From a phage, in NCBI GenBank assembly GCA_029366385.1, contig GCA_029366385.1_4540.1: DNA of 64,000 nt, one strand, 5' to 3'. The notes under the pieces are model-generated. The model ran no database searches and had not been told where the DNA came from. It worked only from the letters and a program-made list of their open reading frames with translations. Shown piece after piece: positions 6,417-41,430 of the stretch. The position numbers and the translations under genes were made by a program. Positions within the stretch are counted from its first letter, which is position 1. Every line of letters starts with the position of its first letter.

Positions 6417-6851
6417 ATGCAAAACATCAAACTGACTTGGACCGAAGCTAAAGAAGCAATGAAGGAAGGTAGACGTGTTGAGCACAGTTATTTTTGCGGT
6501 GGTGAATGGTTTGAGATGCGAGATGGTGTTATTCTCGACGAACAAGGTTATAACATGGAAACTTGGTTCAGAGGGGAAGCTTGGCAGGAAGAGGGTTGGT
6601 CTGTAATTGAAAAAGAAGACAGTAAGGAAGAAGGCGTGTTGTCTAATGTAGAACGCAAGATGAGGGAAACAAAGATACCTGCTTTGGATTTTGTATACCT
6701 GGAAGAACTTGTGGCAGCATCTTTTGTAGCAGGAAATCTTTGGAATACACCTGTTAGCCGACTGGAGAACCAAAATAACCCATCTGCTCGTAATCACAAG
6801 CTTTATAAGGGTAAAGGTCACAACAAATTAAAGAAAGGAAAGAAGAAATGA
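6417..6851 (+). CDS. Hypothetical protein, possible DUF2829-like N-terminal region
   Basis: 144 aa; strong RBS; pattern W-TEAKEAMKEGRRV ... W..EEGWSVIE recalls DUF2829; Lys-rich C-tail; antisense track ORF 6315-6821 judged spurious. Confidence 0.5.
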   Translation: MQNIKLTWTEAKEAMKEGRRVEHSYFCGGEWFEMRDGVILDEQGYNMETWFRGEAWQEEGWSVIEKEDSKEEGVLSNVERKMRETKIPALDFVYLEELVAASFVAGNLWNTPVSRLENQNNPSARNHKLYKGKGHNKLKKGKKK

Positions 6852-6994
6852 TCTACAAAAACAAGTTCACTGGTTGTCTCCGTAAATTTATCGATAAGAA
6901 AGGGTATGTTTCTCTTGACAACGGGGTTACATGGACAGAGAATGGCACTTCAGAACAGCTGATCAAAGCTTTGCCTTACTACGAGGAGGTTTAA
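6848..6994 (+). CDS. Small protein (48 aa)
   Basis: Unlisted ORF MIYKNKFTGCLRKFIDKKGYVSLDNGVTWTENGTSEQLIKALPYYEEV; ATGA overlap with upstream stop, stop abuts next ATG. Confidence 0.35.
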   Translation: MIYKNKFTGCLRKFIDKKGYVSLDNGVTWTENGTSEQLIKALPYYEEV

Positions 6995-7318
6995 ATGTCA
7001 AACAGTTTGTTTAGCGTGTCAATTGCACCACGTGTCAACATCCGTTGTCAGTTTGTTACTTTACCTGGTGTAACGCATATCACATTAGAATACGATCCTC
7101 GCTCACGAGACAACCCAATCACAGGGAAAATTGATTGTGCTTATGGAGACTTTGTTATGGATCACCAAACCCTCTTATGCTGTGTGCAACGCTTACAGGC
7201 AGGATCTTTATACATCTTTAAGAAAACAGTGTTCCAAGAGATTGCTCAAGCAGTTGAAAGCGGTATGGAGACTCTTAACGTTATGATTGAAGCAGCCAAC
7301 CAGAAGGAGGTTTTATGA
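6995..7318 (+). CDS. Hypothetical protein
   Basis: 107-aa ORF, GAGGAGG RBS. Confidence 0.5.
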   Translation: MSNSLFSVSIAPRVNIRCQFVTLPGVTHITLEYDPRSRDNPITGKIDCAYGDFVMDHQTLLCCVQRLQAGSLYIFKKTVFQEIAQAVESGMETLNVMIEAANQKEVL

Positions 7319-17854: not shown

Positions 17855-18460
17855 ATGCAACATAGTGTAGTAGTCAACATGCCGAACAGCGGAGATAAAT
17901 CTTTTGGTGTCCCTGCTAAAAAAGTGTGGAAAGCCCATTTTCATCTTACTTTATCTAACGTTAGTTCTGAAGAGTTGATGAAAGCAGCTAAGATTATTGG
18001 TGCCAAATGCACAACAATTGATTTACATCGGGATACAAAGTCTCAACGTGATCGTATGTTAACAAAGTATCAAAGCGATCTCGACACTACTTTAATGTTG
18101 CAATGTGTAGAAAAACTTGAGAATGCAGGTTTCAATGTTGTTCGTTACAAACTGGAACGAATGTTTAAACATGTTGCCTGTGTTCTTTTCATGGATCTAA
18201 GTAAAGAAAATTATGGAGAAGTTCACATTAAGACTTCAGCAAGTGATCCCGAAGTAGAAACAAACTTCTTCCGTATTTCTTCTAATGCTGAAGAAATTGA
18301 TTACCGATTTTATAATGCTCGCTTATATTCCGCAGAAGATAAGTTGCGTTTCAATGAAGCGTATGATATGCTCTTGAACAGTGGGATACAGATAAAAGGC
18401 TACCACATAGAACAAGTTGTGGTAGACAGTAACTTAAATCTTGATGCGTGGTGGGCCTAA
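17855..18460 (+). CDS. Hypothetical protein
   Basis: 201-aa ORF with RBS; contains HFHLTL but no second H-x-T/S motif. Confidence 0.5.
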   Translation: MQHSVVVNMPNSGDKSFGVPAKKVWKAHFHLTLSNVSSEELMKAAKIIGAKCTTIDLHRDTKSQRDRMLTKYQSDLDTTLMLQCVEKLENAGFNVVRYKLERMFKHVACVLFMDLSKENYGEVHIKTSASDPEVETNFFRISSNAEEIDYRFYNARLYSAEDKLRFNEAYDMLLNSGIQIKGYHIEQVVVDSNLNLDAWWA

Positions 18461-18461
18461 T

Positions 18462-19118
18462 ATGACAATAAAACATATCTCTTTTGATGTATGGAACACT
18501 CTTATTTCTGCCAATCAAAACTATGCAGATGCACGTACGCACACTATTGCGACATATGGTAGAATGTCTGAACGTGCCGCAAAAGAAGCATATAAAGATG
18601 CCAAAGAAATTATGGATAATGCTGCACTAAATGGGTGTGCAGAAGGTGTAGCATATGCATGGAATATGTTGGGAAGAAAAATAGGTTTAACCCCTGTAGA
18701 ATCTGCACAAATGCGTTTTGAGTGTGAACAATGGTTTCTTAAATTTCCTCCACATATTGCTTTAGATTTGCCAGTTTGTTTGCTATACTTGTCTGGTAAA
18801 TATGATCTTAGTATTAAAAGCAATACTAATTTTATATCTGGAGATATTTTGCGTCGTGCTTGCATGTTTGATAGTTGGAATTGTTTTGAATTTATGCATT
18901 TTTCAGACGAACATCTGTTGTGTAAACCAGATCCTAGATTCTTTGTTAGGACCGCCACATATTCAAGCATTCCTTTGAAGGCTGAAGAGATCTTACATGT
19001 TGGGGACAGCGAAGAATTTGATGGTAAATGTGTTGACATAGGGATTAACTTCTGTCATATTAAGAACCCTAACGATTTACTAGAGAAACTTAAAAGAGGA
19101 GAAATTGTAAATGCGTAA
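18462..19118 (+). CDS. HAD-superfamily-like hydrolase
   Basis: Track ORF 18441-19118 taken from ATG 18462; motif I-like ISFDVWNTL and motif IV-like LHVGDSEEFD. Confidence 0.45.
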   Translation: MTIKHISFDVWNTLISANQNYADARTHTIATYGRMSERAAKEAYKDAKEIMDNAALNGCAEGVAYAWNMLGRKIGLTPVESAQMRFECEQWFLKFPPHIALDLPVCLLYLSGKYDLSIKSNTNFISGDILRRACMFDSWNCFEFMHFSDEHLLCKPDPRFFVRTATYSSIPLKAEEILHVGDSEEFDGKCVDIGINFCHIKNPNDLLEKLKRGEIVNA

Positions 19119-19938
19119 TCAAACTCAAATTTTTGCAAATAAATTTGATGCCCTGGAAACTGCTACTTTTGATATCAAAGATTATTCAAAATTGAAATTT
19201 GGTAGTAACCAAGCTGCGCGTCGTATGGGTAAAGAATTGGCACTTCAGTTTTTTGCTCAAGTAGCAATGAAACATATTGGGGAACAATTTGTTATCATTC
19301 CTTCTCCTTATAACCATGTGCATAATGCTGCAACAATGATGACAGATCATTTTATTAATTACTTTAATATGTTACAAGCACAATATGATCAAGGTCGTTC
19401 AGCAGAACTGGATATTATTCATCGTAAAGTTAGCTATATCAACGATTATGGTTTCTTGGATAAAGCTAGTCGTAAGAAACTTATTGATGGGGATACATTC
19501 TACTGCAACAAAGAATTCTGGGGTGATAAGAAGCTTGTGTTCATTGATGATGTAAATATCACTGGAACTCATGAAGACAAACTGATTGAGATTCTTGATG
19601 AAAATCAAGTTAAAAATGATGTTTACTTCTTGTATTTTGCAAAATATGAAGGTAATCAAGCAGATACCGAAGCTAAGCTGAATTTTAACTATATTAATAC
19701 ACCAGAAGCGTTTGTTAAAATGATTAATGAAGAATGTGATGCACAGTGTCTTGTTCGTCCTATTAAGTATCTTATGGGCCAAAATCATGAAGACTTCAAA
19801 ATCATTCTTAGCCAATTGCCACACTACTATGTGGAACAACTTTTCTTCGGCTGTTTAGCTGAAGGCTACAATCGAATTGCAAAGTATGCTGAAAACTTTG
19901 AGTTCTTGGATCGTTACACAAAACAACATATTCTGTAA
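19111..19938 (+). CDS. Phosphoribosyltransferase (type I PRTase fold)
   Basis: 275 aa; PRPP-binding signature KKLVFIDDVNITGTHED. Confidence 0.55.
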   Translation: MRNQTQIFANKFDALETATFDIKDYSKLKFGSNQAARRMGKELALQFFAQVAMKHIGEQFVIIPSPYNHVHNAATMMTDHFINYFNMLQAQYDQGRSAELDIIHRKVSYINDYGFLDKASRKKLIDGDTFYCNKEFWGDKKLVFIDDVNITGTHEDKLIEILDENQVKNDVYFLYFAKYEGNQADTEAKLNFNYINTPEAFVKMINEECDAQCLVRPIKYLMGQNHEDFKIILSQLPHYYVEQLFFGCLAEGYNRIAKYAENFEFLDRYTKQHIL

Positions 19939-19947
19939 GGAGGAAAA

Positions 19948-20421
19948 ATGTTGAAGGTTGTTACTGGGAATCTGATCGATGCAGCGAAGAATGGGGAAGT
20001 GAACGTTATTGCTCATTGTTGCAATTGTATGTGTAATATGGGGGCAGGAATTGCTCCGCAAATTAAACGAGCATTCCCTTATGCATATGCGGCAGATTTA
20101 GACACAATGGCTGGTGATCAAAGTAAGTTAGGTTCTTTTAGTTTAGGGGTGCCAGACGAACAATCAGACCCTTTGGTATATAATCTATACGGGCAATACC
20201 GTTACGGATATAATGCTAAAGGTCGTCAGTTGGACTATGATGCCCTATACGATGCACTAATAGCTATGGCTAACGATTTGCTTCTCCGTGACCAAAAATG
20301 TAAGATCGGTTTACCTATGATTGGAGCGGGACATGCCGGAGGTAATTGGGCTATCATCCAAGTGATGATTGAAGAAACTTTAGTAAAAACAGGTCACGAT
20401 GTGACTATTTATAAACTTTAA
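19948..20421 (+). CDS. Macro-domain protein, TARG1/OARD1-like
   Basis: 157 aa; VIAHCCNCMCNMGAGIAPQIKRAFP aligns with human TARG1 [24 protein letters not shown], and IGLPMIGAG..VTIYKL with MPRIGCG..ITVYTL (recalled sequence). Confidence 0.75.
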   Translation: MLKVVTGNLIDAAKNGEVNVIAHCCNCMCNMGAGIAPQIKRAFPYAYAADLDTMAGDQSKLGSFSLGVPDEQSDPLVYNLYGQYRYGYNAKGRQLDYDALYDALIAMANDLLLRDQKCKIGLPMIGAGHAGGNWAIIQVMIEETLVKTGHDVTIYKL

Positions 20422-20433
20422 GAGGAGATTAGT

Positions 20434-20655
20434 ATGGGTGTTTTTGCAGGTATTGTTGCAGTGGTAAGCTTTTTTGTTATTGCTTTTATGCTTAGTTTGA
20501 TTCCAGCTTGGTTACTGTTGCTGGCTTACAACTATGTTGCTGAAGTTATGGGTCATGCAGATATCACTGTCCCAGTAACCTTCTGGACCGTGGTTTGTGT
20601 TTCGTTTATTCTGGCGGTATTACGAGGAATCTTTTCCTCTCATTCAACAAAATAA
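20434..20655 (+). CDS. Small membrane protein
   Basis: 73 aa, two hydrophobic segments. Confidence 0.45.
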   Translation: MGVFAGIVAVVSFFVIAFMLSLIPAWLLLLAYNYVAEVMGHADITVPVTFWTVVCVSFILAVLRGIFSSHSTK

Positions 20656-20658
20656 GTG

Positions 20659-20686
20659 TTGACATAGTTCTTAAAAAGAGTAAGAT
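20659..20686 (+). promoter_or_regulatory. Putative promoter TTGACA-N16-TAAGAT upstream of terC
   Basis: Same -35/-10 hexamers and spacing as the 6359 promoter. Confidence 0.45.
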
Positions 20687-20698
20687 ATATCACATGAA

Positions 20699-20717
20699 GC
20701 GGGGAATAGTTCCCCGC
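20699..20717 (+). promoter_or_regulatory. Leader stem-loop upstream of terC
   Basis: Perfect 8-bp stem GCGGGGAA / TTCCCCGC with loop TAG, between the -10 and the RBS GAGAGGAG. Confidence 0.35.
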
Positions 20718-20734
20718 AAAGAGAGGAGAAAAGA

Positions 20735-21709
20735 ATGCAACTCGGTTTCCCAATTATTGATGTAGTTGTTTTAGTTGGTATTTTAGCATTGTCTATTGGT
20801 ATCGATTTCTTTGGTCATAAAGAGAATAAAGAAATTGGAATTAAATCTGCTTTGCTTTGGTCTGTTTTTTGGATTGCTTTAGCTTTAGGATATTACGCAT
20901 TCATTTGGGTAGAACATGGTAAAGAGTTTGCCGCGCTTTTCCTAAGTGGCTATGTGTTGGAAAAGAGTCTTTCTGTAGATAACCTAATGGTGTTCATGGC
21001 AATTTTTGCAAGCTTTGGAATTAAGAGCACACATCTCCAACATAAGATTTTACTTTGGGGGATTGCAGGAGCCATTGTCTTCCGAGGTATTTTTGTTGCA
21101 GCAGGAACAGCTTTATTTAACCTGCATTGGTCGGTCCAAGTGCTGTTCGGTCTGATTGTAGCTTGGTCTGCCGTTGCTATTATCAAAGGTGGTGACGAAG
21201 AAGAGGATATCGATTACTCTAAACATTGGGCTGTTCGTTTAGTAGGTAAAATCCTGCCTGTGCACAATGCACTGGATGGTGAAAAGTTCATTACCATTAA
21301 GAATGGTATTAAATATGCAACTCCTGCTCTTCTTTGTGTGTTTGTTATTGAGCTTACAGATATTGTCTTCTCTTTTGATTCAGTTCCGGCTGTGATCGGT
21401 GTGACACAAGAACCTCTGCTAGTTTATTCTGCAATGCTGATGGCTGTTCTTGGTTTACGTGCACTTTTCTTTGTGTTAAGTGTAGCTGTGAAATATTTGG
21501 TTCACTTAGAGAAAGCTGTTGCTGTGGTTCTGGTGTTTGTTGGTGCTAAACTTATGTATCATCCGTTCGGTGAAACACTTCATGCCAAGTGGTCATTCCT
21601 CCCGCATGATATTTCCCCTAACGTAAGTCTGATGATTGTTCTAGGCACATTAGCTCTTGGTGTTATTGCAAGCTTTATCTTCCCTGAAAAAGAAGAAGCT
21701 ACTGTTTAA
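20735..21709 (+). CDS. terC: TerC-family integral membrane protein
   Basis: 324 aa, multiple TM helices; motifs EKSLSVDNLMVF and TDIVFSFDSVPAV. Confidence 0.8.
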   Translation: MQLGFPIIDVVVLVGILALSIGIDFFGHKENKEIGIKSALLWSVFWIALALGYYAFIWVEHGKEFAALFLSGYVLEKSLSVDNLMVFMAIFASFGIKSTHLQHKILLWGIAGAIVFRGIFVAAGTALFNLHWSVQVLFGLIVAWSAVAIIKGGDEEEDIDYSKHWAVRLVGKILPVHNALDGEKFITIKNGIKYATPALLCVFVIELTDIVFSFDSVPAVIGVTQEPLLVYSAMLMAVLGLRALFFVLSVAVKYLVHLEKAVAVVLVFVGAKLMYHPFGETLHAKWSFLPHDISPNVSLMIVLGTLALGVIASFIFPEKEEATV

Positions 21710-21715
21710 TAGATG

Positions 21716-21740
21716 AGCCTCCTTCGGGAGGCTATTTTAT
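21716..21740 (+). terminator. Rho-independent terminator (UUCG loop)
   Basis: Stem AGCCTCC / GGAGGCT, loop TTCG, then ATTTTAT. Confidence 0.55.
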
Positions 21741-21751
21741 AGGAGAGACTT

Positions 21752-22102
21752 ATGAGTAATTTTGATGAAATTCAAAAACTTGTTTGGGATTTACCTGGGG
21801 ATGTTGATTACGTTTCAGATTATCTTTCAAAAGTTTACCCTGGGGTAAGCGTTATGATTGTGACCAAAGATCCAATTAACCTTCCTCCTAACGTAGTAGC
21901 TTGTTGTGGAAGTGGTTCAGGAGAGGTAGAACCTGTATCTCGTTGGGAATTAACCAAAGCTGTTTCAAAACGAAACGGCGAAGTTTTGAATATTGATATC
22001 GAACAAATCTGGACTTCTCCAGCCGCCAAGTGGAATGATCCTAATGGTTGGGATTTGTTCTTCTGGGATAATGAAACTGATGATGAGGTATTTTTAAAAT
22101 GA
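21752..22102 (+). CDS. Hypothetical protein
   Basis: 116-aa ORF with AGGAGAG RBS. Confidence 0.5.
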   Translation: MSNFDEIQKLVWDLPGDVDYVSDYLSKVYPGVSVMIVTKDPINLPPNVVACCGSGSGEVEPVSRWELTKAVSKRNGEVLNIDIEQIWTSPAAKWNDPNGWDLFFWDNETDDEVFLK

Positions 22103-22344
22103 AATACTTGTTGGTTGTGTTTGAAAATATTTGTTTTGCAATAGGGTTGTTTGTTGTAATTTTTGTATTGACAAGCGTAATCAACGGCAGTAAAGTGAGT
22201 TTATACCGAGATGGAGAGCAACTTTATTGCTTCTCTGGAGATTTCAAACACAGATGTATTAATAGCCAAAACGAGGAAAGCAAATATGAAAAAACTAGCC
22301 CTGATTTTAATTGGTTGTATCTTTTTAACAGCTTGCGAGGATGA
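22099..22344 (+). CDS. Possible small membrane protein
   Basis: 81-aa ORF with ATGA overlap, but its 3' end overlaps the lipoprotein gene by about 59 nt. Confidence 0.3.
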   Translation: MKYLLVVFENICFAIGLFVVIFVLTSVINGSKVSLYRDGEQLYCFSGDFKHRCINSQNEESKYEKTSPDFNWLYLFNSLRG

Positions 22345-22723
22345 AACAAATCCCGCACAATACCAACAACCTCCTCAACAATACGCTCAACAAGGATCTG
22401 ACGGAGATACAACTATTATCAACAATGGTGGCGGTTCTAGTAGTAGCGGTGTTGGTGAGTTTGCTACAGGTATGTTGTTAGGGCATATGATGAGTGGCGG
22501 TAGTAATCGTAGCAGTGGGGATTATAACGATAACAGAACGATTATTAATAAGCATTATAATACACCTAAACCGAAAACTAATTTTTATGGTAAGCCTAAA
22601 CAAGAGATAAAAACTTATGAAAAGCCGAGACAAACTTTTAAAACAAATAGTAGCTATACAACTCGTAAATCTTACAATAGCCCTTTAAGTAAAAAGAGTT
22701 CATCTCGTAGCAAGCGACGTTAA
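22286..22723 (+). CDS. Putative lipoprotein (Gly/Ser-rich, basic C-terminus)
   Basis: Track ORF 22211-22723 taken from ATG 22286 after GAGGAAAG; lipobox-like LILIGCIFLTAC. Confidence 0.55.
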   Translation: MKKLALILIGCIFLTACEDETNPAQYQQPPQQYAQQGSDGDTTIINNGGGSSSSGVGEFATGMLLGHMMSGGSNRSSGDYNDNRTIINKHYNTPKPKTNFYGKPKQEIKTYEKPRQTFKTNSSYTTRKSYNSPLSKKSSSRSKRR

Positions 22724-22737
22724 TAAGGAGAAAAACA

Positions 22738-23331
22738 ATGACAATTTCTATTCGTACTTCCATCGTAGGTGTTAAAAGGTTGCCTAATGCTTTGCAAATC
22801 ACACGCGCTTTGAGGGATACATTCTCTGCTGTGGACGAGCATAAGATGCTTGATAATCTTTCAAATTGGCCCTATTTCCATTATTTTAAAAATGAAGATG
22901 ACGAGTTTATAGACGCTGTTTCTTATGGTTATGATTTCGGTAAGGAGGTTTCTGCTGAAGAATTTGTAGCTATGGTGTTCCCAAACGGTTTGCCTACTCG
23001 CAGTAAACGTAAAAAAGGACCAAAAAACAAGAAACGTGCTACTAATAAAGCTACCATTTTCTTTACTGATGGCACACAATATACTATTAAAGATTTTGAA
23101 GAGGTATCTTATACAGCAGGTGGGAATCTTTCTTTCTACACCATCAAAAAACAAAACTCTACGTTCAGCCATGTTTCTAACATGATTGAAATGTTAGTAG
23201 AAGATATTGAAAGCGTGGCTGTGTTAGGTATGCATAAAAGCTTTTTAATTACAAATATTTCAGATTTCAGTGCAAGTTTATCTGGCCCTGATTTTGAAGC
23301 CACGACCACGCATTTCGCTTTTAAGGTGTAA
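22738..23331 (+). CDS. Hypothetical protein
   Basis: 197-aa ORF. Confidence 0.5.
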   Translation: MTISIRTSIVGVKRLPNALQITRALRDTFSAVDEHKMLDNLSNWPYFHYFKNEDDEFIDAVSYGYDFGKEVSAEEFVAMVFPNGLPTRSKRKKGPKNKKRATNKATIFFTDGTQYTIKDFEEVSYTAGGNLSFYTIKKQNSTFSHVSNMIEMLVEDIESVAVLGMHKSFLITNISDFSASLSGPDFEATTTHFAFKV

Positions 23332-23334
23332 GTT

Positions 23335-23925
23335 ATGCATACCGAGAGAGACTTGCAACTCTTGTGGTGGGAAGTGATGCAGGAAATAAAAGAAGATTTT
23401 CCTGTTTACTACAACATGTTACATGAAGCAGGATATAAAGCTTGTGTTAGAAACAAAGTGAATAACTCTTTCGGTTGGTGCAACTACCGAGATAAAATTG
23501 TTGTTGTAAATTGGCACTTGCATAAGAACTCCACAAGAGATATGATCGTGGATACAATGAAGCACGAAATTGCTCATGCTATTGATGGTTGTATGGGTAA
23601 GTTTAGTAGACACGGTGCTCATTGGCAAAAACTGGCAGCAGAGTTAGGGGCTAATCCTAAAGCCACTTCCAAAGAGCCGTTGAACCACGAATATAAATAT
23701 GTTCTTGTTCTGGTAGATAGGTTTGCGACAAGATGTGTTAGAGGTTATAATCGTAAACCTAATCGCATGTACCCAGGTAAGCAACCTAATATGTGGTTGA
23801 AATCAGATAAAGAAGGGACCGAAGGAAAATTATGGTTGTATAAATGGGACGATTGGGTTAAAGTAGCTAAAGAGTACGGTGTTTCACCATATATAAGAGA
23901 TGCAGAAGAGGAGAATGAAGAATGA
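23335..23925 (+). CDS. SprT-like zinc metallopeptidase domain protein
   Basis: 196 aa; HEIAHAI (HExxH) followed by HGAHWQ. Confidence 0.6.
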   Translation: MHTERDLQLLWWEVMQEIKEDFPVYYNMLHEAGYKACVRNKVNNSFGWCNYRDKIVVVNWHLHKNSTRDMIVDTMKHEIAHAIDGCMGKFSRHGAHWQKLAAELGANPKATSKEPLNHEYKYVLVLVDRFATRCVRGYNRKPNRMYPGKQPNMWLKSDKEGTEGKLWLYKWDDWVKVAKEYGVSPYIRDAEEENEE

Positions 23926-25034
23926 CAAGTCCATTTTTAAAAGCAGCTACTGGCGGTCAGAAGAAACCTGAAATGAGCGTATTTGCTGCAACAACAGATG
24001 CAAGTAAATCTGTATTCGCTCCAAGCGTGTTAGATGCCAGTCCTGTTTATGCACCAGCGGCACCGCAAGAAGTTCCAGTTTTGCCTTCTATGACCCGACA
24101 AGAGATCGAAGAGATTGGGGCAGAGGCAGGAACAACCTTGCGTTCCTTGAATGCCGAGGTATTAAAACATCAACGTAGTAATCAAGGCGATCAGATGAGT
24201 GAACGACTCACAGCTTTGATTAAACAGGCAAAACAACTTGATCCAAACTCTATTAAACAAAGCAAGGGTATTACTAAACTCATTAAAAAAGTTATGGGTA
24301 TGAAAGAAGATCTGTTTGGGGAGTTTGATAATGTTAATAACCGTATTGAAGAGTTGGTAAAAAACCTTCAAATGGATATTCGCAAAGAAGAAGATTCCTT
24401 GGTATATCTTGAAAAGCTACATCAAGCTATTGGACAATATGCTGCAAGTTTGAACCGAGATATGCAGCTTCTAACAGCAACCTATGAAAAAGAAGAACAA
24501 GCTTTGGCTGCTCTTCCAGAAGATGCAGTAGAACAGCGACAAGTGATCCGAGACACTTTGGATCTTCTGGAGATTCGTATTGCAGATTTAAAAGCATTGC
24601 GCCTACTGTGTGTCCAAATGGGACCGCGTGTACAAGGTATGCAAAAAGTTTCTGCAAGCTTAATGCGATCTGCGCGTAACATAGTAAATAATGTTATTCC
24701 TGCTTACTCTGCTAACTTCTCAATGTATATCGAGAGCTTACGTCAAATGAAAGCAGCAGAGACGCAGAATAACGTTCTTGATGAATTTAACCTAGCAATT
24801 AAACTGGGTAGCGATCTTGCCACACAGAATCAGATCGAAGCAGCAGCACTGGCTAACCGTCAAGTGTTGGATATTGAAACTCTGCGTCACGATCAGGAAA
24901 ACTTGGTTAAGATGTTGGAAGAAACTAACCGCATCAATACGGAAGCCCGTGCTGCTCGTGTTGATTATATTAATGAAGTTCAATCTCTGGAAGACGGGAT
25001 GGTAGCTGCTGTGAAACGAGGGCTTGGTAAATGA
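23922..25034 (+). CDS. Putative TelA-like (toxic anion resistance family) protein
   Basis: 370 aa, long helical protein; resemblance to TelA is from recalled pattern only. Confidence 0.4.
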   Translation: MTSPFLKAATGGQKKPEMSVFAATTDASKSVFAPSVLDASPVYAPAAPQEVPVLPSMTRQEIEEIGAEAGTTLRSLNAEVLKHQRSNQGDQMSERLTALIKQAKQLDPNSIKQSKGITKLIKKVMGMKEDLFGEFDNVNNRIEELVKNLQMDIRKEEDSLVYLEKLHQAIGQYAASLNRDMQLLTATYEKEEQALAALPEDAVEQRQVIRDTLDLLEIRIADLKALRLLCVQMGPRVQGMQKVSASLMRSARNIVNNVIPAYSANFSMYIESLRQMKAAETQNNVLDEFNLAIKLGSDLATQNQIEAAALANRQVLDIETLRHDQENLVKMLEETNRINTEARAARVDYINEVQSLEDGMVAAVKRGLGK

Positions 25035-25401: not shown

Positions 25402-25597
25402 CTACGATAACGACCCTAATATTATCCAGTTAACCCGACAAGAACTGATCACAATCATTGAAGATGCTTTTATTGATGGCTGGAATACACAAGACAATGA
25501 TTGGGGTGGACCCGAAGCTTTTCTGGAACATCATAAAGCTTATGGAGAATTTTGTGAAACCACTGTAGCTCTTGATAATCTGAAGGAGGGTTTGTAA
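25394..25597 (+). CDS. Hypothetical protein
   Basis: 67-aa ORF. Confidence 0.45.
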   Translation: MFNYDNDPNIIQLTRQELITIIEDAFIDGWNTQDNDWGGPEAFLEHHKAYGEFCETTVALDNLKEGL

Positions 25598-26160
25598 TGG
25601 GTTGTTTTAGCTTTTTGTGCAAAGAATCGGGCAAAGCTGCCCTTTCTACTTCTTTCGACGGATCACCTTGTTATCTCTTTCTTTTGAAGGACGGTGTTGT
25701 TATTGAAGAGATGTATGGCAACTATGATAGTTATGGTTGTGTTTTCTCTGGAAAGGAGGATGAAAATGGCGTTCGTGAAAGGTTCGAATGGGCTATGGAT
25801 TGGGGTAAGGTTTGTGATTTAATGCATTCCTCAAATCCAAGGGACGGTATTGCTATGGTGCTGGAAGAGTACTTTACAGGTGAAATCCCTACAGAACAAT
25901 CTGACGGAGATCCTAACCAAGGTTGGGGTGATGGTGAAGAAGATCCAGATTGTTTTTTCAGCACAGAAAAGAATAAGTTTAAACGTGTTGACAACCCTTA
26001 TCACAAAGTGCATAATACTCTCATTGAAACAGAAGATGACAAGATGGAAATTGAAGAAGATGATCCTCTTGTAACACTTCCTATAAGTGAGTTACAAAAG
26101 ATCACTAAGGAAGCTTACGATTTGGGCTTCAAAATTGGTAGAGGAGGTATGCGTGTTTAG
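25597..26160 (+). CDS. Hypothetical acidic protein
   Basis: 187-aa ORF. Confidence 0.5.
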   Translation: MGCFSFLCKESGKAALSTSFDGSPCYLFLLKDGVVIEEMYGNYDSYGCVFSGKEDENGVRERFEWAMDWGKVCDLMHSSNPRDGIAMVLEEYFTGEIPTEQSDGDPNQGWGDGEEDPDCFFSTEKNKFKRVDNPYHKVHNTLIETEDDKMEIEEDDPLVTLPISELQKITKEAYDLGFKIGRGGMRV

Positions 26161-26431
26161 ATTCAATATTCAAGAAGAAAAGTATCAAGATTTACCTATT
26201 GCTTTCGAAGATCTTGGCATAGGGGCCACATTCATGTATTATGATGCCTATGAAGACGCAGGGTTGGATACCTACCGTAACTTGGTGTTCATTAAAAATT
26301 CCACAAACAGTGCGATCTGTATTAATGGATCACTAGCACAACGAGGCTATACTCATTGCATCCCGCCAGATACAAATATGGTGGAAGTAGATTTAGAAGT
26401 TACCAATATTACACTTAAGAAGGAGAAATAA
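26153..26431 (+). CDS. Small protein, paralog A of 27453-27722
   Basis: Track ORF 26087-26431 taken from GTG 26153 after GAGGAGG; shares F-I-E.K...I.DL..G.TF.Y..A.....LD ... EV.L.VT.ITLK with 27453-27722. Confidence 0.5.
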   Translation: MFRFNIQEEKYQDLPIAFEDLGIGATFMYYDAYEDAGLDTYRNLVFIKNSTNSAICINGSLAQRGYTHCIPPDTNMVEVDLEVTNITLKKEK

Positions 26432-26432
26432 T

Positions 26433-27227
26433 ATGTCCGAGAAAATCAGCCTGAAAAAACGTCAAGAAAACCTTGCTTTCTCTCTGAAAAAGAATAAGAA
26501 CCTGAATGAAGGTAAGATTGTTCTTCGTGTAGCATGTGCTCTAGATATTTCTGGTAGTATGCATGGTCTATATTCTAGTGGGGTAGTAAGTGATTTTGTA
26601 GGTAAACTGCTTCCTTTTGGTATGTTGTTCGACGATAATGAACAAATTGACATGTGGGCCTTCAATACGAGTTCTCAAGAGCTTACTCCAGCAACAGCAG
26701 ACGTTTACGATGACTATGTTGGTAAATGTATGCGTAATATTCGTATTGGAGGTGGAACAAATTACGCCCCTGTAATGGCAGATATCTACGATGAGTATTT
26801 TGGCACTGTTACCAAATATGTTACCACTAAACAAGTGGTACAAGAGGAGGCTCCAAAGAAAGGCTTCTTTAATCGTCTGCTTGGTAAAACTGAAACAGTA
26901 TCTGTAGAGCGTGAAAAGGTTGTAGCTGTATCTGAACCAGGTGCTGACGTTACCCCTGGTGTTGTATTCTTCCAGACGGATGGTGAGAATGGTGATCCTA
27001 GTGCTGTTCGTCGTCTTATTGAAGAGAATAAGAATAAGCCTATCTATTGGTTCATGGTTGGCGTTGGTAATGAGAAGTTCAGCTTCCTGAAAGAACTGGC
27101 AAATGCTTATGATAATGTTGGTTTTATTGGCATTAAAGATTTAGACTTGACAGATTCAGAGCTTTATGACAAACTCTTATCTGAAGAGTTCGGAGAGTGG
27201 GTTGTTAAAGTAGGTGCTAAAAAATGA
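26433..27227 (+). CDS. von Willebrand factor A (vWA) domain protein, TerY-like, with TerD-like N-terminal segment
   Basis: 264 aa; MIDAS-type ALDISGSM; N-terminus MSEKISLKK resembles the TerD N-terminus. Confidence 0.65.
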   Translation: MSEKISLKKRQENLAFSLKKNKNLNEGKIVLRVACALDISGSMHGLYSSGVVSDFVGKLLPFGMLFDDNEQIDMWAFNTSSQELTPATADVYDDYVGKCMRNIRIGGGTNYAPVMADIYDEYFGTVTKYVTTKQVVQEEAPKKGFFNRLLGKTETVSVEREKVVAVSEPGADVTPGVVFFQTDGENGDPSAVRRLIEENKNKPIYWFMVGVGNEKFSFLKELANAYDNVGFIGIKDLDLTDSELYDKLLSEEFGEWVVKVGAKK

Positions 27228-27472
27228 TCGACGAGCTTGCCTCTCAAGTCGTAGAAAATTATTGGCGCGAGAGAGAAGCTTTCATTATGCGCAGTCTCAA
27301 AGAATATTTCATTGGGACTGTGCGGATGGAAGATATTGTAAGTAGAGTAGAGATTCATGTATGGCCTGATTATGAAGAATGGGTTGACAAAGAAAATGAA
27401 AATGCTATAATTCTTCGTATATACAAACCGGAGATAACATTAGGAGGAAGAAGTGTTAAACTTCGAAATTGA
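27224..27472 (+). CDS. Hypothetical protein
   Basis: 82-aa ORF. Confidence 0.45.
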   Translation: MIDELASQVVENYWREREAFIMRSLKEYFIGTVRMEDIVSRVEIHVWPDYEEWVDKENENAIILRIYKPEITLGGRSVKLRN

Positions 27473-27722
27473 TGAGCAAAAAATAAATAAACGATGCCTT
27501 ACCATTAAAGATTTGGATGTAGGAGATACTTTCGTCTATGAAAATGCATTTGACGAAAATGGTTTAGACCTTAGTGAAGTCATTGTTTATTTAAAAGTAG
27601 ATGATGGGGAAAATGATTATTCTGCTGTAGAACTAAACCATCATGCACAATTAGTAGCAATCCAAAACACATCTAAGCTTTTGGAAGTAGAATTGACTGT
27701 AACTGGTATTACACTTAAATAA
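27453..27722 (+). CDS. Small protein, paralog B of 26153-26431
   Basis: 89 aa, GTG start after AGGAGG. Confidence 0.5.
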   Translation: MLNFEIDEQKINKRCLTIKDLDVGDTFVYENAFDENGLDLSEVIVYLKVDDGENDYSAVELNHHAQLVAIQNTSKLLEVELTVTGITLK

Positions 27723-27737
27723 TAGAGGAGACAAAAG

Positions 27738-28340
27738 ATGACTGATAAAATTTCCCTGAAAAAAGGCTCTAGCGAAAAAATTTCCCTGAAGAAAGTTGCT
27801 CCGGCTCTGAAAGAACTGCGCCTGGAATTCTCTTGGAAATCTGATTCTAAACTGGATCTGGATGTAAGTGCACTGGTTTGTCGTCACAATGCCGCTGGCA
27901 ATCCGGAAATGCTGTCTGCACGTCATCTGGTTTGCTATGCTAACAAGTTTGATCCTGAACGTTCTACCTTCGCTGGTGACGATGTTCGTGATGGAACTGG
28001 CAGCATGGAGCAGATTGATATTACTCTGGCTAAAATCTCTCCTGATGCACAAGAGATTGCCTTTGTTCTGACCATTGATGATGATACAGGTCTGAAACGT
28101 TTTGGTCATGCTTCTGAAGGTATGCTTAAAATCTTCGACTCCGAGCGCAATGTGGAAATTCTGGATTTTGACTTCCTGGCTCCTGAAGTAGCTGGCAACA
28201 CAATCTGCCACGTGGCTTCCTTGGTTCGTGAAGATGGGGAATGGAAACTGAAAGCATATGGTGTAGGTAAAGCTGGTCTGGATATTTGCGATGTGGTGAT
28301 GGCCTTCGGTGGTAAAAAAGAATGGTATGAATGTCCATAA
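27738..28340 (+). CDS. terD: TerD-domain stress protein
   Basis: 200 aa; aligns by eye with enterobacterial TerD (ISLKKG..ISLKK, FVLTIDD, DGEWKLKAYGVGKAGL); CTG/CGT/GGT-rich codon usage. Confidence 0.85.
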   Translation: MTDKISLKKGSSEKISLKKVAPALKELRLEFSWKSDSKLDLDVSALVCRHNAAGNPEMLSARHLVCYANKFDPERSTFAGDDVRDGTGSMEQIDITLAKISPDAQEIAFVLTIDDDTGLKRFGHASEGMLKIFDSERNVEILDFDFLAPEVAGNTICHVASLVREDGEWKLKAYGVGKAGLDICDVVMAFGGKKEWYECP

Positions 28341-28355
28341 TTAACAAATGATTTT

Positions 28356-28375
28356 GAGGGGGAGAAATCCCCCTC
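28356..28375 (+). terminator. Stem-loop with GAAA tetraloop (terminator-like or RNA processing site)
   Basis: 8-bp stem GAGGGGGA / TCCCCCTC; 16 nt after terD stop; no long T-run. Confidence 0.4.
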
Positions 28376-28404
28376 TTGCAATAAAGCCTCTATCGTGTTA
28401 TACT
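28376..28404 (+). promoter_or_regulatory. Putative promoter TTGCAA-N17-TATACT with extended -10 (TGt)
   Basis: TTGCAA 28376-28381, TG 28396-28397, TATACT 28399-28404. Confidence 0.4.
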
Positions 28405-28436
28405 AGAAATTCGTTAACTTAAAAAGGAGGCAAAAT

Positions 28437-28958
28437 TTGCTGATAAAAAACTTTGTAACAGTTGCGTTACTATCCTTAACTGCTTTTACATTTACACCTG
28501 TTGTGGCGAAAGCCGAAGCTGCAAACGTAAAAACCGCTAAAGTAGTTCACAAATGTACAAAGCAATATAATGATAAAATTCTATTAGCTTGTGCAATTTA
28601 CGCAGAAGGTCGCGGTCTGGGTAAAAAAGGAATGAATGCCGTTGGGAATGTGGTAATCAACAGAAGAAATGATGCCTACTTCCCTAACACAGTCAAGGGA
28701 GTCTTGTTCCAGAAAGGGCAATTCTCATATGCGAAAACTTTTAACGTGACAGAGAAAGATAAATGGCAGGAAGCAAAAGCAATAGCGGAGCGTTTACTTT
28801 ATTTAGAGAAACATTTTCCTGAATTGCGGTCTGTTTTAGATGTTACTAAAGGTGCTCTATACTTCAAGAAACGGAATATAAGGACACACTGGGAGCGTGA
28901 TATGCGTCTTGTTTATCGAGATAAAGTGCATGGTTTCTATCTACCAAAGGGGAGTTAA
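28437..28958 (+). CDS. Secreted SleB/CwlJ-type cell-wall hydrolase
   Basis: 173 aa, TTG start after AAGGAGG; signal peptide; CAIYAEGRG..GMNAVGNVVINRR..FPNTVKGVLFQKGQFS matches the SleB-type hydrolase pattern. Confidence 0.6.
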   Translation: MLIKNFVTVALLSLTAFTFTPVVAKAEAANVKTAKVVHKCTKQYNDKILLACAIYAEGRGLGKKGMNAVGNVVINRRNDAYFPNTVKGVLFQKGQFSYAKTFNVTEKDKWQEAKAIAERLLYLEKHFPELRSVLDVTKGALYFKKRNIRTHWERDMRLVYRDKVHGFYLPKGS

Positions 28959-28959
28959 A

Positions 28960-29244
28960 ATGCAAGAAGATAATACTGTTGTTGTAGCAAGTTACCTGGT
29001 TGTCGGTCTTACCGAAGAGGACGTATACTACACCCGTAAACATTTGGAAGCATACGCTACTTTGTTTATGGAAGATGAAAAGGATGTAGATAAATATAGC
29101 ATTGATATGATCAACGACAGTATTTATCCTTGTGTGGTTCTTAAAGTAGATGCTGTGCTGTGGGAGCGTTTTGCAAGGACTCATGATGCTGTAGAATGCT
29201 CCACAGTAATGTCTCAAAACAACATTTTAGGGGAGATTCACTGA
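28960..29244 (+). CDS. Hypothetical protein
   Basis: Track ORF 28897-29244 taken from ATG 28960. Confidence 0.45.
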   Translation: MQEDNTVVVASYLVVGLTEEDVYYTRKHLEAYATLFMEDEKDVDKYSIDMINDSIYPCVVLKVDAVLWERFARTHDAVECSTVMSQNNILGEIH

Positions 29245-29474
29245 TGGGAGAAGTCATTGAAGTAAATTTTCGCACTAAACAAAAAGTGCAAAAATATGTT
29301 GTTATTAAAAACATTTGCGTTGTCTGCTTCAATACTGTAATATACGATTCACGACGCGGAGAAAACGAAAATGAACCTTACATTGAAATTTCTAAGAACA
29401 AAGGTCAATGTATTTGTAAGAACTGTGCAGTAGCTATTAAGGAGGTTGTAAATGAAAACGCTTGGGACCAATGA
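29244..29474 (+). CDS. Hypothetical Cys4 zinc-ribbon protein
   Basis: Track ORF 29196-29474 taken from ATG 29244; CVVC ... CICKNC. Confidence 0.45.
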   Translation: MGEVIEVNFRTKQKVQKYVVIKNICVVCFNTVIYDSRRGENENEPYIEISKNKGQCICKNCAVAIKEVVNENAWDQ

Positions 29475-29643
29475 AACTGGCGAGATCTCTCTTCAAGAAG
29501 TGACAAACGACAAGCTGATTAAACTACGGGATGTAGCTCGTGACCATCTCCAAGAATCTTTTAAAGAATATATGGAAGCACGAGATCGTGTCATCCAAAT
29601 CCAACAAGAAATGATTAAACGTGGGATTGTAGCTGACAGTTAA
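29452..29643 (+). CDS. Hypothetical protein
   Basis: 63-aa ORF. Confidence 0.4.
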   Translation: MKTLGTNETGEISLQEVTNDKLIKLRDVARDHLQESFKEYMEARDRVIQIQQEMIKRGIVADS

Positions 29644-34903: not shown

Positions 34904-34932
34904 TTGACAACTTTGCGGAAGGGACTTATACT
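34904..34932 (+). promoter_or_regulatory. Putative strong promoter TTGACA-N17-TATACT
   Basis: Consensus -35, 17-nt spacer, near-consensus -10; about 35 nt upstream of ATG 34966. Confidence 0.5.
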
Positions 34933-34965: not shown

Positions 34966-35397
34966 ATGCGTATGACAATCGATCTGAATGCAAAAGTTAA
35001 AGCTGCTGGTGCTCTGGGTGCTGGTGTTATTAAACACAAACAAGCGTTGGCATTTGCCATCCCACACATGATTGTTGAGGATCATCCTGAAGAGTTTGCT
35101 GTAAAAGTTGTTGAGAACAATGTCTCTGTTATTGAACATCTTCCAACTGGACGTTCTTACCGTGTTGTTTCTTCTAAAGGTTTTCGTTTCGATGTAAGCC
35201 CTTCTTTCACAAAAGGTGCTGGTCGTAGTAAAGTGGGTATTCTTTCTTACAAATATTATATCGATAAAGTTGCAGATGGTGTTGCATTCTGTCGTGTAAG
35301 TGAAGGTAAAGTAGATATCATCTTTAAAAATACCAAAAACATGGTTATTTCTGATGATGGTAAAGTTGACCTCACTATTGAGTTCGCTAACAACTAA
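34966..35397 (+). CDS. Hypothetical protein, probably abundant
   Basis: 143 aa; own promoter; codon usage visibly skewed to GGT/CGT/GCT/GTT. Confidence 0.55.
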   Translation: MRMTIDLNAKVKAAGALGAGVIKHKQALAFAIPHMIVEDHPEEFAVKVVENNVSVIEHLPTGRSYRVVSSKGFRFDVSPSFTKGAGRSKVGILSYKYYIDKVADGVAFCRVSEGKVDIIFKNTKNMVISDDGKVDLTIEFANN

Positions 35398-40478: not shown

Positions 40479-41366
40479 ATGTCCGTAATTAATACTGAAA
40501 CTGATCGTAAAGGCAAAACCGTAACTTATGCAACTGGTATCGTAGACTACGTTAAACTGGATAAATTCGCTGAACCTAAAACTTTTCATTGGGAAGGAAA
40601 AACGATTGTTTCAACTCACCGAGCTTCTCTTGTTCTGAAAGAGAAAGGTGCTAAACCAGATGAGAAAGGTGTTTGGATTTCTCTTGGTGACATTGAACTG
40701 AAAGAAGGTTATGAAAACCTGCAAGTCAAAGAAGGTGATAATTGGATCACTATTGAAAAAGGTGTAGAAGTAAGTATTGATATTGATCGCGTTGATAATA
40801 AAGGCGGTAAGACTTACTACAATACTAAAAAATCTCGTATTACAGTATTGTCTACCGATGGTGTTCAGAAGTCTAACAAATCTTCTGGCAATAAAGGTTC
40901 CAACGATGCTGCTCCTAAGCAGTCCTATAAAAAACGTGATACTGTAGGTCTGGAAACTGGTCACGCAGTAAATGGTGCACTGGAACTGATTCGTAATGGT
41001 GTTAAAGGCGATGCTTTCGATATCGCTGGGGTTGTTCAATCTGCAACTGTCACGCTGAAATCTGAAATTGCTGAATCTCGTGGCGTTGATATTAATGATT
41101 ATGATCTTGGGGCATCTGTTGGTCACGCTATTCTCAATGCTTGTAAAGACCATACCATTAAGACTGTATCTGTAGAAGATCTGATTGACTCTGCTCGTAA
41201 AGTTCTGGCTCTGTCTGATAAAGTTGCTGCTGCCATTCGTGGTTCCGCAGAACAACCTAAGAAAGAAGAGAAGAAAGAAGAGAAGAAACCTGAACCACAA
41301 CCAGAACCAACTCCAAGTAATCAAGAAGAACCTCCAATGGACTTCGACGATGATATCCCATTCTGA
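40479..41366 (+). CDS. SSB-like protein with enterobacterial SSB C-terminal tip
   Basis: 295 aa; last 12 residues EPPMDFDDDIPF match my recollection of the E. coli SSB C-terminus; Lys/Glu-rich linker; biased codon usage. Confidence 0.5.
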   Translation: MSVINTETDRKGKTVTYATGIVDYVKLDKFAEPKTFHWEGKTIVSTHRASLVLKEKGAKPDEKGVWISLGDIELKEGYENLQVKEGDNWITIEKGVEVSIDIDRVDNKGGKTYYNTKKSRITVLSTDGVQKSNKSSGNKGSNDAAPKQSYKKRDTVGLETGHAVNGALELIRNGVKGDAFDIAGVVQSATVTLKSEIAESRGVDINDYDLGASVGHAILNACKDHTIKTVSVEDLIDSARKVLALSDKVAAAIRGSAEQPKKEEKKEEKKPEPQPEPTPSNQEEPPMDFDDDIPF

Positions 41367-41398: not shown

Positions 41399-41430
41399 AA
41401 AAGGGAACCTTTGCGGGTTCCCTTTTTTAT
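41399..41430. terminator. Strong bidirectional rho-independent terminator between convergent blocks
   Basis: Stem AAAGGGAACC / GGTTCCCTTT, then TTTTTT on + strand and A-run (T-run on - strand) on the other side. Confidence 0.6.

Follow-up and report, generated by a model that had tools for sequence, protein, structure and literature searches.

The stretch of phage DNA analysed here, referred to as the window (64,000 nt in full), carries a terD gene that stands out in two ways, since its codons lean toward those preferred by an enterobacterial host and its 5' end holds a direct repeat. A sequence-only reading had taken the codon usage as the mark of either very high expression or recent acquisition from an enterobacterial host, and the repeat as an internal tandem duplication. 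The question raised by this locus is therefore whether terD is a newcomer with a freshly duplicated 5' end or a resident phage gene whose composition answers to the demand for its product.

The terD gene and its module in a phAPEC8-like phage

A 2-kb query around terD was about 99% identical at the nucleotide level, over its full length, to phAPEC8-like phages, and the source of the window is a Phapecoctavirus (subfamily Stephanstirmvirinae), a phAPEC8-like E. coli myovirus. Because of this match, E. coli was taken as the host and an E. coli codon reference as suitable. With a genome of about 150 kb, this phage is not a jumbo phage. The following genes form the module or lie next to it:

19111-19938, + strand: ComF-like phosphoribosyltransferase (PRTase_3; PF15610, E = 4e-41)
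19948-20421: macro-domain protein
20735-21709, + strand: TerC-family integral membrane protein (PF03741, E = 4e-40)
23335-23925: SprT-like protein
23922-25034, + strand: TelA-family protein (PF05816, E = 3e-33)
26433-27227, + strand: vWA-TerF-like protein (PF10138, E = 5e-37), starting with the same doubled motif as TerD (MSEKISLKKRQENLAFSLKK)
27453-27722, + strand: small ORF of 89 aa, no Pfam match, preceding terD
27738-28340, + strand: terD, encoding a 200-aa single-domain β-sandwich protein of the TerD family that starts MTDKISLKKGSSEKISLKK

TerD matched the Pfam family PF02342 with 98.9 bits (cut-off 25.3; E = 3e-28), its residues 5-179 aligning with profile positions 3-177 of 187, and phmmer connected it with the solved structures 2KXT (E = 1.5e-15) and 3IBZ (E = 2.9e-14). 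An AlphaFold2 model of the protein (pLDDT 87.3, pTM 0.86) was matched by Foldseek to 3IBZ, 2KXT, 2QNG and 2QZ7 at a probability of 1.00 (TMt 0.74-0.78), the best match being 9a6r_B (TM 0.84). This gene of the 'tellurite-resistance' type, like its family, is no new entry, being already catalogued and carrying an annotation in many phages. TerD binds Ca2+ according to the summary given in PMC8123226, and the acidic loop of the phage protein, GDDVRDGTGSME, aligns with GDNRTGEGDGDDE of 2KXT (canonical type GDN-x-TG-x-G-x-GDDE). Compared with that of Klebsiella pneumoniae TerD, the phage loop is shortened by two residues and partly neutralised, two or three acidic positions having been lost, while D82, D85, G88 and E91 are invariant across the phage clade. 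Since the canonical Ca2+-binding loop is shorter and less acidic here, the ligand of the phage TerD is uncertain.

The genes for TerC, TelA, the vWA-TerF-like protein and TerD are co-located on the same strand within 7.6 kb, an arrangement kept in phi92 and in L007, a metagenomic contig with a distant TerD. The 89-aa ORF is probably co-transcribed with terD; it is a paralogue of the ORF at 26087-26431 that precedes the vWA gene (BLASTP, 30% identity, E = 2e-12), and L007 has its equivalent, of 88 aa, in the interval from vWA to TerD. Further upstream, a HAD profile reached 19.5 bits on the ORF at 18441-19118, for a threshold of 26.4. PADLOC models gave no meaningful match to TerD, vWA, TelA, TerC, the three proteins of the TerC-TelA interval or ORF 25597-26160, the only signal among these eight scanned proteins being a weak one for SspF in the SprT-like protein (E = 0.0064).

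Phi92_gp172 ('putative stress protein') and the TerDs of phAPEC8, ESCO13 and DE16 are orthologues with 81-100% protein identity. In phages of the phi92/phAPEC8 type, as in the window, terD comes after a vWA-TerF-like gene and before a SleB-like hydrolase region, and the phi92 gene resembles that of the window also in its high codon adaptation index (CAI, 0.52), its σ70-like promoter and its 3' hairpin. Unlike the window, phi92 is missing the two small ORFs that separate vWA from terD, its terD is followed by an additional 200-aa gene (gp171), and its hairpin is formed from a different sequence with a UUCG loop. Expression-level codon bias of terD is not noted in the records of phi92, phAPEC8, ESCO13 and DE16.

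Bacterial relatives are more distant. The TerDs of Klebsiella pneumoniae (2KXT/2KXV) and Streptomyces coelicolor (3IBZ), as well as the TerD/TerE proteins of terZABCDEF from E. coli and plasmids, have the same Pfam domain as the phage protein, and 2KXT and 3IBZ also share its doubled motif and, by Foldseek (probability 1.0, TMt 0.75-0.78), its β-sandwich architecture. However, the bacterial proteins (2KXT, 3IBZ, plasmid ter) are 24-31% identical to the phage TerD, whose inter-motif linker is two residues longer, and bacterial ter genes reside on a plasmid or genomic island, whereas the gene described here is carried by a virulent phage. The abbreviated Ter operons of other phages (those of Caulobacter and other jumbo phages, and φKp34) share TerC, TelA, a TerF-type vWA protein and TerD with the window, which differs from them in having in addition a ComF-like PRTase next to the module. 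In Klebsiella phage φKp34 the set consists of terC, terF-vWA, terD in two copies and telA, while the window phage has a single TerD. In jumbo phages of Brevundimonas and Xanthomonas, TerD shares only about 28% identity with the present one. PRTases have been described as Ter-linked enzymes of signal biosynthesis (PMC7824862).

Codon usage, expression signals and predicted abundance

The CAI was calculated for the 86 non-overlapping ORFs of the window using the weights of Sharp & Li 1987 for highly expressed E. coli genes. With a value of 0.552, terD ranked first, the other 85 ORFs having a mean of 0.265 (sd 0.062), and it was a true outlier both in the whole set (z = 4.6) and in comparison with the 45 ORFs that reach 150 codons (z = 5.4). 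When the protein was recoded 20,000 times with the window-average synonymous frequencies, the CAI was 0.283 ± 0.025 with a maximum of 0.419, and none of the 20,000 recodings reached the value of the actual gene (z = 10.7). The sequence-only reading had described a uniform use of host-preferred codons, and this description stood for the gene as a whole and for CTG, which supplies 17 of the 19 Leu codons against 14% in the background (Fisher p = 4e-13). It did not stand singly for CGT, GGT, GAA and AAA, which show the same lean without individual significance (p = 0.16-0.58) because they are common throughout the phage and their counts are small. At the other end of the scale, AGA, ACA, GGA, CAA, CCA, ATA, AGG and TTA make up 2.5% of the TerD codons versus 12.8% of the background. 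The phage encodes the tRNAs Arg-TCT, Thr-TGT, Gly-TCC, Gln-TTG and Pro-TGG, and several of the codons avoided in terD (AGA, ACA, GGA) are read by these tRNAs of its own.

The company that terD keeps was seen in a whole-genome ranking, for which the 196 ORFs of at least 80 aa in the 150 kb of the annotated relative DE16 were ordered by CAI (median 0.264). The first rank was held by a 131-aa gene directly upstream of the major capsid gene, the second by the major capsid gene itself (0.577) and the third by TerD (0.537), followed in ranks 4 and 5 by the phrog_9938 gene and an SSB-like gene, which come second and third by CAI in the window. The gene that precedes the capsid-adjacent 131-aa gene took rank 6 and the tail sheath gene rank 9. 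In a principal component analysis (PCA) of RSCU values, which needs no reference set, TerD scored +2.7 sd on the first axis, which accounts for 17% of variance and is headed by the capsid, SSB-like, TerD, sheath, phrog_9938, vWA-TerF-like and capsid-adjacent 131-aa genes; CGT, CTG, GCT, GGT and TCT were enriched along this axis and AGA, TTA, ATA, AGG, ACA and GGA depleted. The vWA gene ranked sixth of 86 in the window by CAI (0.365). The grouping obtained by PCA, free of any external reference, agrees with that obtained by CAI from the Sharp & Li weights.

The bias has also been maintained across the relatives. The orthologue of phiWec181 has a CAI of 0.577 despite 68 synonymous codon differences from the window gene, that of Klebsiella phage phi1_175008 a CAI of 0.486 with 79 such differences and that of phi92 a CAI of 0.520 with 63, and in the distant contig L007 TerD is the highest-CAI gene of its 20-kb locus. 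Since the CAI of the orthologues stays at 0.49-0.58 despite 63-79 synonymous changes, the codon bias is held in place by selection. These observations support long-standing translational selection as the source of the codon bias of terD, which is as host-optimised as the major capsid gene.

Genes predicted to be highly expressed (PHX) by their codon usage include, for example, the T4-type capsid and gp32 genes. Their codons are shifted toward the major tRNAs of the host, as are those of terD and of the capsid and SSB-like genes of the same phage; unlike the usual PHX cases, terD is an accessory gene in a lytic phage, with an abundance that is predicted from codons. A terD of Deinococcus was flagged as predicted highly expressed by codon usage in the work of Karlin & Mrazek 2001, as cited in PMC8123226. 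A literature search on the TerD of Phapecoctavirus and Stephanstirmvirinae found no transcript or protein abundance data.

The signals around the gene are the following:

27384-27411, + strand: candidate σ70 consensus promoter, TTGACA-16 nt-TGcTATAAT (extended -10), from a sequence match
27726-27730, + strand: Shine-Dalgarno sequence AGGAG, 7 nt before the terD ATG, from direct reading of the sequence
28356-28375, + strand: hairpin GAGGGGGA-GAAA-TCCCCCTC, an 8-bp GC-rich stem with a GAAA tetraloop, 16 nt past the terD stop
28376-28404, + strand: promoter-like site TTGCAA-17-TATACT, adjoining the hairpin, for the SleB-like cell-wall hydrolase gene that follows

The candidate promoter at 27384-27411 is the sole 12/12 match to the consensus in the 64-kb window and precedes the 89-aa ORF by about 40 nt and terD by about 330 nt. 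The perfect consensus is also kept in phiWec181. In phi92 and Klebsiella phage phi1_175008, from which the intervening ORFs are absent, TTGACT-16-TAAAAT / TAGAAT is found instead, in the gap immediately ahead of terD. The same AGGAG ribosome-binding site is annotated for phi92 gp172. Other high-CAI genes of the window also stand behind 11/12 promoters, at 34904 and 8753. The mRNA of terD is moderately unstructured between -20 and +40 (-3.9 kcal/mol, rank 18 of 86), a value that was not counted as evidence. With a perfect match to the σ70 promoter consensus and a strong ribosome-binding site added to its clustering with the capsid, 131-aa, SSB-like and sheath genes in both CAI and PCA, the reading of terD as a very highly expressed gene gains support, and TerD is probably among the most abundant proteins of the phage, as far as can be judged from such signals.

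The stem-loop with a GAAA tetraloop said to end the gene does exist, with a predicted free energy of -16.9 kcal/mol, but it lacks the U-tract of a canonical terminator: its tail is TTGCAATAAA, without a T-run, so that the rho-independent pattern of a stem-loop followed directly by a U-tract is absent, and a scan for the terminator consensus does not call it. About nine GC-rich hairpins occur in intergenic stretches of the window, this one included. Among the four relatives examined, three have a GC-rich hairpin after terD, near-identical in phiWec181 (GGGGGA-GAAA-TCCCCC) and built on different stems in phi92 (GCGCCC-TTCG-GGGCGC) and in the Klebsiella phage (GGAGGGT-GAAA-ACCCTCC), and none is obvious in L007; the tails of the relatives are somewhat better (CTTTCT, ATATTTT). 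The persistence of a hairpin at this place in spite of the differing stems of phi92 and the Klebsiella phage argues for a conserved role at the RNA level, and because it is without a U-tract, the hairpin is regarded less as a proven terminator than as a likely boundary or stabiliser of the transcript at its 3' end. All four relatives (phiWec181, phi92, the Klebsiella phage and L007) retain the promoter-like site next to the hairpin position, in the form TTGCAA-17-TAnAnT.

Origin of the gene and of its N-terminal repeat

Homologues of TerD were found in 149 phage records, 65 of them at 99% identity or more, 6 at 90-95% and 61, phi92 gp172 included, at 80-90%; in about 65 records the protein is 100% identical. 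The gene order around it is kept across Phapecoctavirus, Justusliebigvirus and the contig L007, whose TerD is 53% identical and in which the succession is TerC...TelA...vWA, the small ORF, TerD and Hydrolase_2...primase-helicase, DNA polymerase. Could the codon usage nevertheless reflect a recent horizontal acquisition from an enterobacterial ter operon, which has not yet drifted toward the composition of the phage? The GC content of terD (0.446) is indeed above that of its neighbours (about 0.32-0.40), and ter operons are common on enterobacterial plasmids, as seen from the 2,317 TerD-bearing records that tblastn retrieved from 72,556 plasmids. However, all of these matches were below 60% identity at the protein level, the best plasmid TerD of any kind being 36% identical and the best enterobacterial one about 31%, and a nucleotide search of terD for signs of transfer (blastn with 11-nt words) against 5,426 complete E. 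coli genomes and their plasmids returned no match. In a library of 1.84 billion proteins clustered at 50%, three clusters only were found at E <= 1e-30, the next relative being 38% identical. The GC3 of the gene (0.37) likewise reflects the T-ending plus CTG pattern typical of translational selection, shared by the major capsid gene, and not the bulk composition of E. coli. Recent acquisition from an enterobacterial host, which the sequence-only reading had offered as one of two explanations, is thus effectively refuted. As there is no near match in the E. coli genomes and plasmids searched, and as the phage subfamily and more distant phages carry the gene in a syntenic position, terD is, by these sequence comparisons, an old, vertically inherited core gene of the phages.

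A constraint of another kind, from a gene on the opposite strand or from an element acting at the RNA level, could also impose a codon pattern. A long stop-free frame overlaps terD in antisense (ORF 27651-28211, - strand, 186 aa) and is open in phi92 too, but it does not stay open in phiWec181, the Klebsiella phage or L007, and stop-poor antisense frames arise naturally from CTG-rich sense strands; with its frame not conserved across orthologues, this ORF was rejected as a gene. No Rfam family was found within 25500-29500 in a scan at E <= 1. Moreover, the same codon preferences occur in the unlinked capsid, SSB-like and tail sheath genes, which makes an antisense or RNA-level origin of the pattern extremely improbable, and translational selection is the reading retained here.

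The direct repeat at the 5' end of terD is real. It was recovered by a repeat finder as GATAAAATTTCCCTGAAAAAAG (27744-27765) and GAAAAAATTTCCCTGAAGAAAG (27774-27795), identical in 20 of 22 nt and with an exact core of 14 nt, the copies being 30 nt (10 codons) apart and each encoding KISLKK:

27747-27764, + strand: KISLKK copy 1, residues 4-9, with predicted β-strand 1 (AlphaFold2) at residues 5-7
27777-27794, + strand: KISLKK copy 2, residues 14-19, with predicted β-strand 2 (AlphaFold2) at residues 14-16

A weaker third copy was found by the same program at the start of the vWA gene (26439-26460), whose N-terminal motif is conserved in five lineages. The A-runs of the repeat were also considered as a slippery or frameshift site, a reading that was rejected for runs of only 6 A that are not in the canonical X XXY YYZ frame.

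A HMMER scan of the 1.84 billion representatives yielded 715 relatives of TerD, and 112 of the 127 single-domain proteins among those retrieved (88%) have two h-x-[LIVMF]-x-[KR] motifs in their first 32 residues. The spacing between the motifs is 8 residues in 84 of these 112 proteins and 10 in 23; the longer spacing, as in the present TerD, is typical of the phage clade, and most bacterial TerDs have 8. The doubled motif is also found, by phmmer alignment, in the solved structures 2KXT, which starts VSLSKGGNVSLSK, and 3IBZ, which starts VSLSKGGNVSLTK. Carried by such a proportion of the single-domain relatives and by solved bacterial TerDs, the motif pair long predates the phage, and the doubled h-x-L-x-K is an ancient N-terminal pair of short β-strands of the TerD family.

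The internal tandem duplication proposed from the sequence did not survive these comparisons. In that explanation the repeat would be the product of a recent duplication within the gene, by replication slippage, or of gene conversion between the 18-nt copies, and it can draw on the exact 14-nt core at a distance of 30 nt, on the minority Ser codon TCC that is present in both copies in all four phage lineages compared, and on the first residue of the motif, on which the two copies agree in 79 of 111 relatives where marginal frequencies would predict 47, phylogeny being ignored. Besides the wide distribution of the motif, the codon use of the gene itself stands against it, since at least five of the six codons are expected to be identical between the KISLKK copies with P = 0.45 under the preferences of terD (5% with window-average codon use). 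In addition, the copies differ in phi92, with I in one and V in the other, and are unlike in other lineages too, and the covariation of the first residue is also explicable by the packing of both strands in one hydrophobic core. That covariation and the presence of TCC in both copies were therefore attributed to shared packing constraints rather than to gene conversion, and recent duplication or conversion is very unlikely. An ancient protein motif, written twice with the same preferred codons for identical residues, is sufficient to explain the near-identical DNA copies.

Proposed role of TerD in the Ter module

Taken together, it is highly probable that terD is a vertically inherited core gene of the phage Ter module, built for very high expression and carrying an ancient motif. 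The gene stands at the 3' end of a module composed of the PRTase, the macro-domain protein, TerC, the SprT-like protein, TelA, vWA(TerF-C) and TerD. Its design for high expression consists of a candidate consensus σ70 promoter, an AGGAG ribosome-binding site and translationally selected codons, with selection favouring CTG, CGT, GCT, GGT and TCT and avoiding AGA, TTA, ATA, ACA and GGA, and the GC-rich tetraloop hairpin may close the unit at its 3' end. In such a scheme the infected cell would produce TerD in near-stoichiometric quantities like those of the capsid protein, probably at an early stage. The protein may then be an abundant soluble partner of TelA, vWA and TerC at the inner membrane, binding Ca2+ or another ligand without catalytic activity.

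The biological role of the protein is drawn entirely by analogy with other Ter systems. Phage Ter clusters have been proposed to act against superinfecting phages or to give stress tolerance (PMC7824862; PMC8386662), and the present module may similarly serve to shield the infected cell or shut it off, by superinfection exclusion or by tolerance of envelope stress. A more specific and rather doubtful idea is that TerD, produced at capsid-like levels from an early consensus promoter, acts stoichiometrically and not as a catalyst, soaking up or buffering Ca2+ or a nucleoside-like Ter signal that the PRTase may make. It could thereby either blunt a Ter-type anti-phage response of the host or drive the sealing of the cell by the phage Ter system against superinfection, with the N-terminal β-hairpin, which the vWA protein shares, possibly docking TerD, vWA and TelA under the membrane.

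An accessory Ter protein with the expression signature of the major capsid and SSB-like genes is a modestly interesting and testable point, in a group of phAPEC8/phi92-like phages that is widely isolated for therapy. The capsid-like signature implies that the Ter module is of importance to infection and that large amounts of TerD would be needed, which makes this protein a good first target for studying the Ter system and phage-encoded Ter clusters.

Two parallel modules around vWA and TerD

Two modules of the window, at 25988-27227 and 27384-28340, present a like architecture, in which a near-consensus σ70 promoter is followed by a small ORF and then by a protein starting with KISLKK, namely the vWA protein in the former and TerD in the latter. 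The small ORFs (26087-26431 and 27453-27722) are paralogous, with 30% identity (E = 2e-12). Phage phi92 has this small ORF in single copy only (gp174), and the distant metagenomic contig L007 has one copy, located between vWA and TerD. The vWA-TerF-like protein carries the following element:

26433-26492, N-terminus: doubled TerD-type motif MSEKISLKKRQENLAFSLKK

The MIDAS sequence DISGSM comes directly after MSEKISLKKRQENLAFSLKK, and the TerD domain is otherwise absent from this protein. The doubled motif is kept in phi92 gp173, in Klebsiella phage phi1_175008, in phiWec181 and in L007, and it appears to be a TerD β1-β2 hairpin that has been retained. Such a hairpin could serve as a docking element common to vWA and TerD.

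Genes bordering terD and the extent of the Ter module

An overlapping frame lies opposite terD, and two relatives have an additional gene 3' of it:

27651-28211, - strand: antisense ORF overlapping terD, 186 aa
L004 (phi92 locus) 6650-7252: extra gene gp171, ~200 aa
L005 (Klebsiella phage locus) 3165-3779: extra gene, ~200 aa

The antisense frame is open in phi92 too, but not in L007, phiWec181 or the Klebsiella phage, where it is interrupted; most likely it is therefore a side effect of a sense strand rich in CTG. The extra gene stands between terD and the SleB-like hydrolase in phi92 and the Klebsiella phage, where it has its own hairpins at its borders and no obvious similarity to TerD, whereas it is missing in the window's lineage. 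The Ter module of the window exceeds the usual component list, also including, within 17855-23925, several genes without annotation in the TerC-TelA interval and the following:

18441-19118: HAD-like protein (sub-threshold match)
19111-19938: ComF-like PRTase (E = 4e-41)
19948-20421: macro-domain protein
23335-23925: SprT-like metallopeptidase

Other codon-bias outliers and phage tRNAs

Two further genes of the window are strong codon-bias outliers. The former is preceded by an 11/12 σ70 promoter at 34904, and behind the latter, at 41399-41426, lies an 11-bp hairpin that has a T-run:

34966-35397: phrog_9938 protein, 143 aa, function unassigned, CAI 0.506
40479-41366: 295-aa protein with a C-terminal tail resembling SSB proteins, CAI 0.493

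The phage family encodes 10 tRNAs, as seen in the cluster of the related phage DE16, which lies outside the window:

L002 7066-9177: tRNAs Arg-TCT, Thr-TGT, Gly-TCC, Gln-TTG, Pro-TGG, Ser-GCT, Asn, Ile and two with anticodon CAT

AGA, ACA and GGA, cognate to phage tRNAs, are among the most depleted codons in the high-expression class, terD included.

TerD relatives and a structural match

In 79 of 111 TerD relatives, the two N-terminal motif copies agreed in their first hydrophobic residue (I/I, V/V, L/L or F/F), against 47 expected from marginal frequencies in a statistic that ignores phylogeny (P0001-P0172, first 32 residues). Three records labelled as Campylobacter or Acinetobacter phages (MG065650.1, MG065639.1 and OP562383.1) encode TerD proteins that match those of the coliphages at 100% or 81% identity, and their genomes are as large as those of Phapecoctavirus/Justusliebigvirus; this points to wrong host labels or to contaminating phages in these submissions.

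The best Foldseek match of the TerD model was 9a6r_B (TM 0.84), which is chain B in an integrative model named 'GLPD-SCP2' and based on crosslinking mass spectrometry. SCP2 is presumably YceC, a TerD-family protein of B. subtilis, with glycerol-3-phosphate dehydrogenase as its partner; if both assignments hold, this match would be a possible lead to the partners of TerD.
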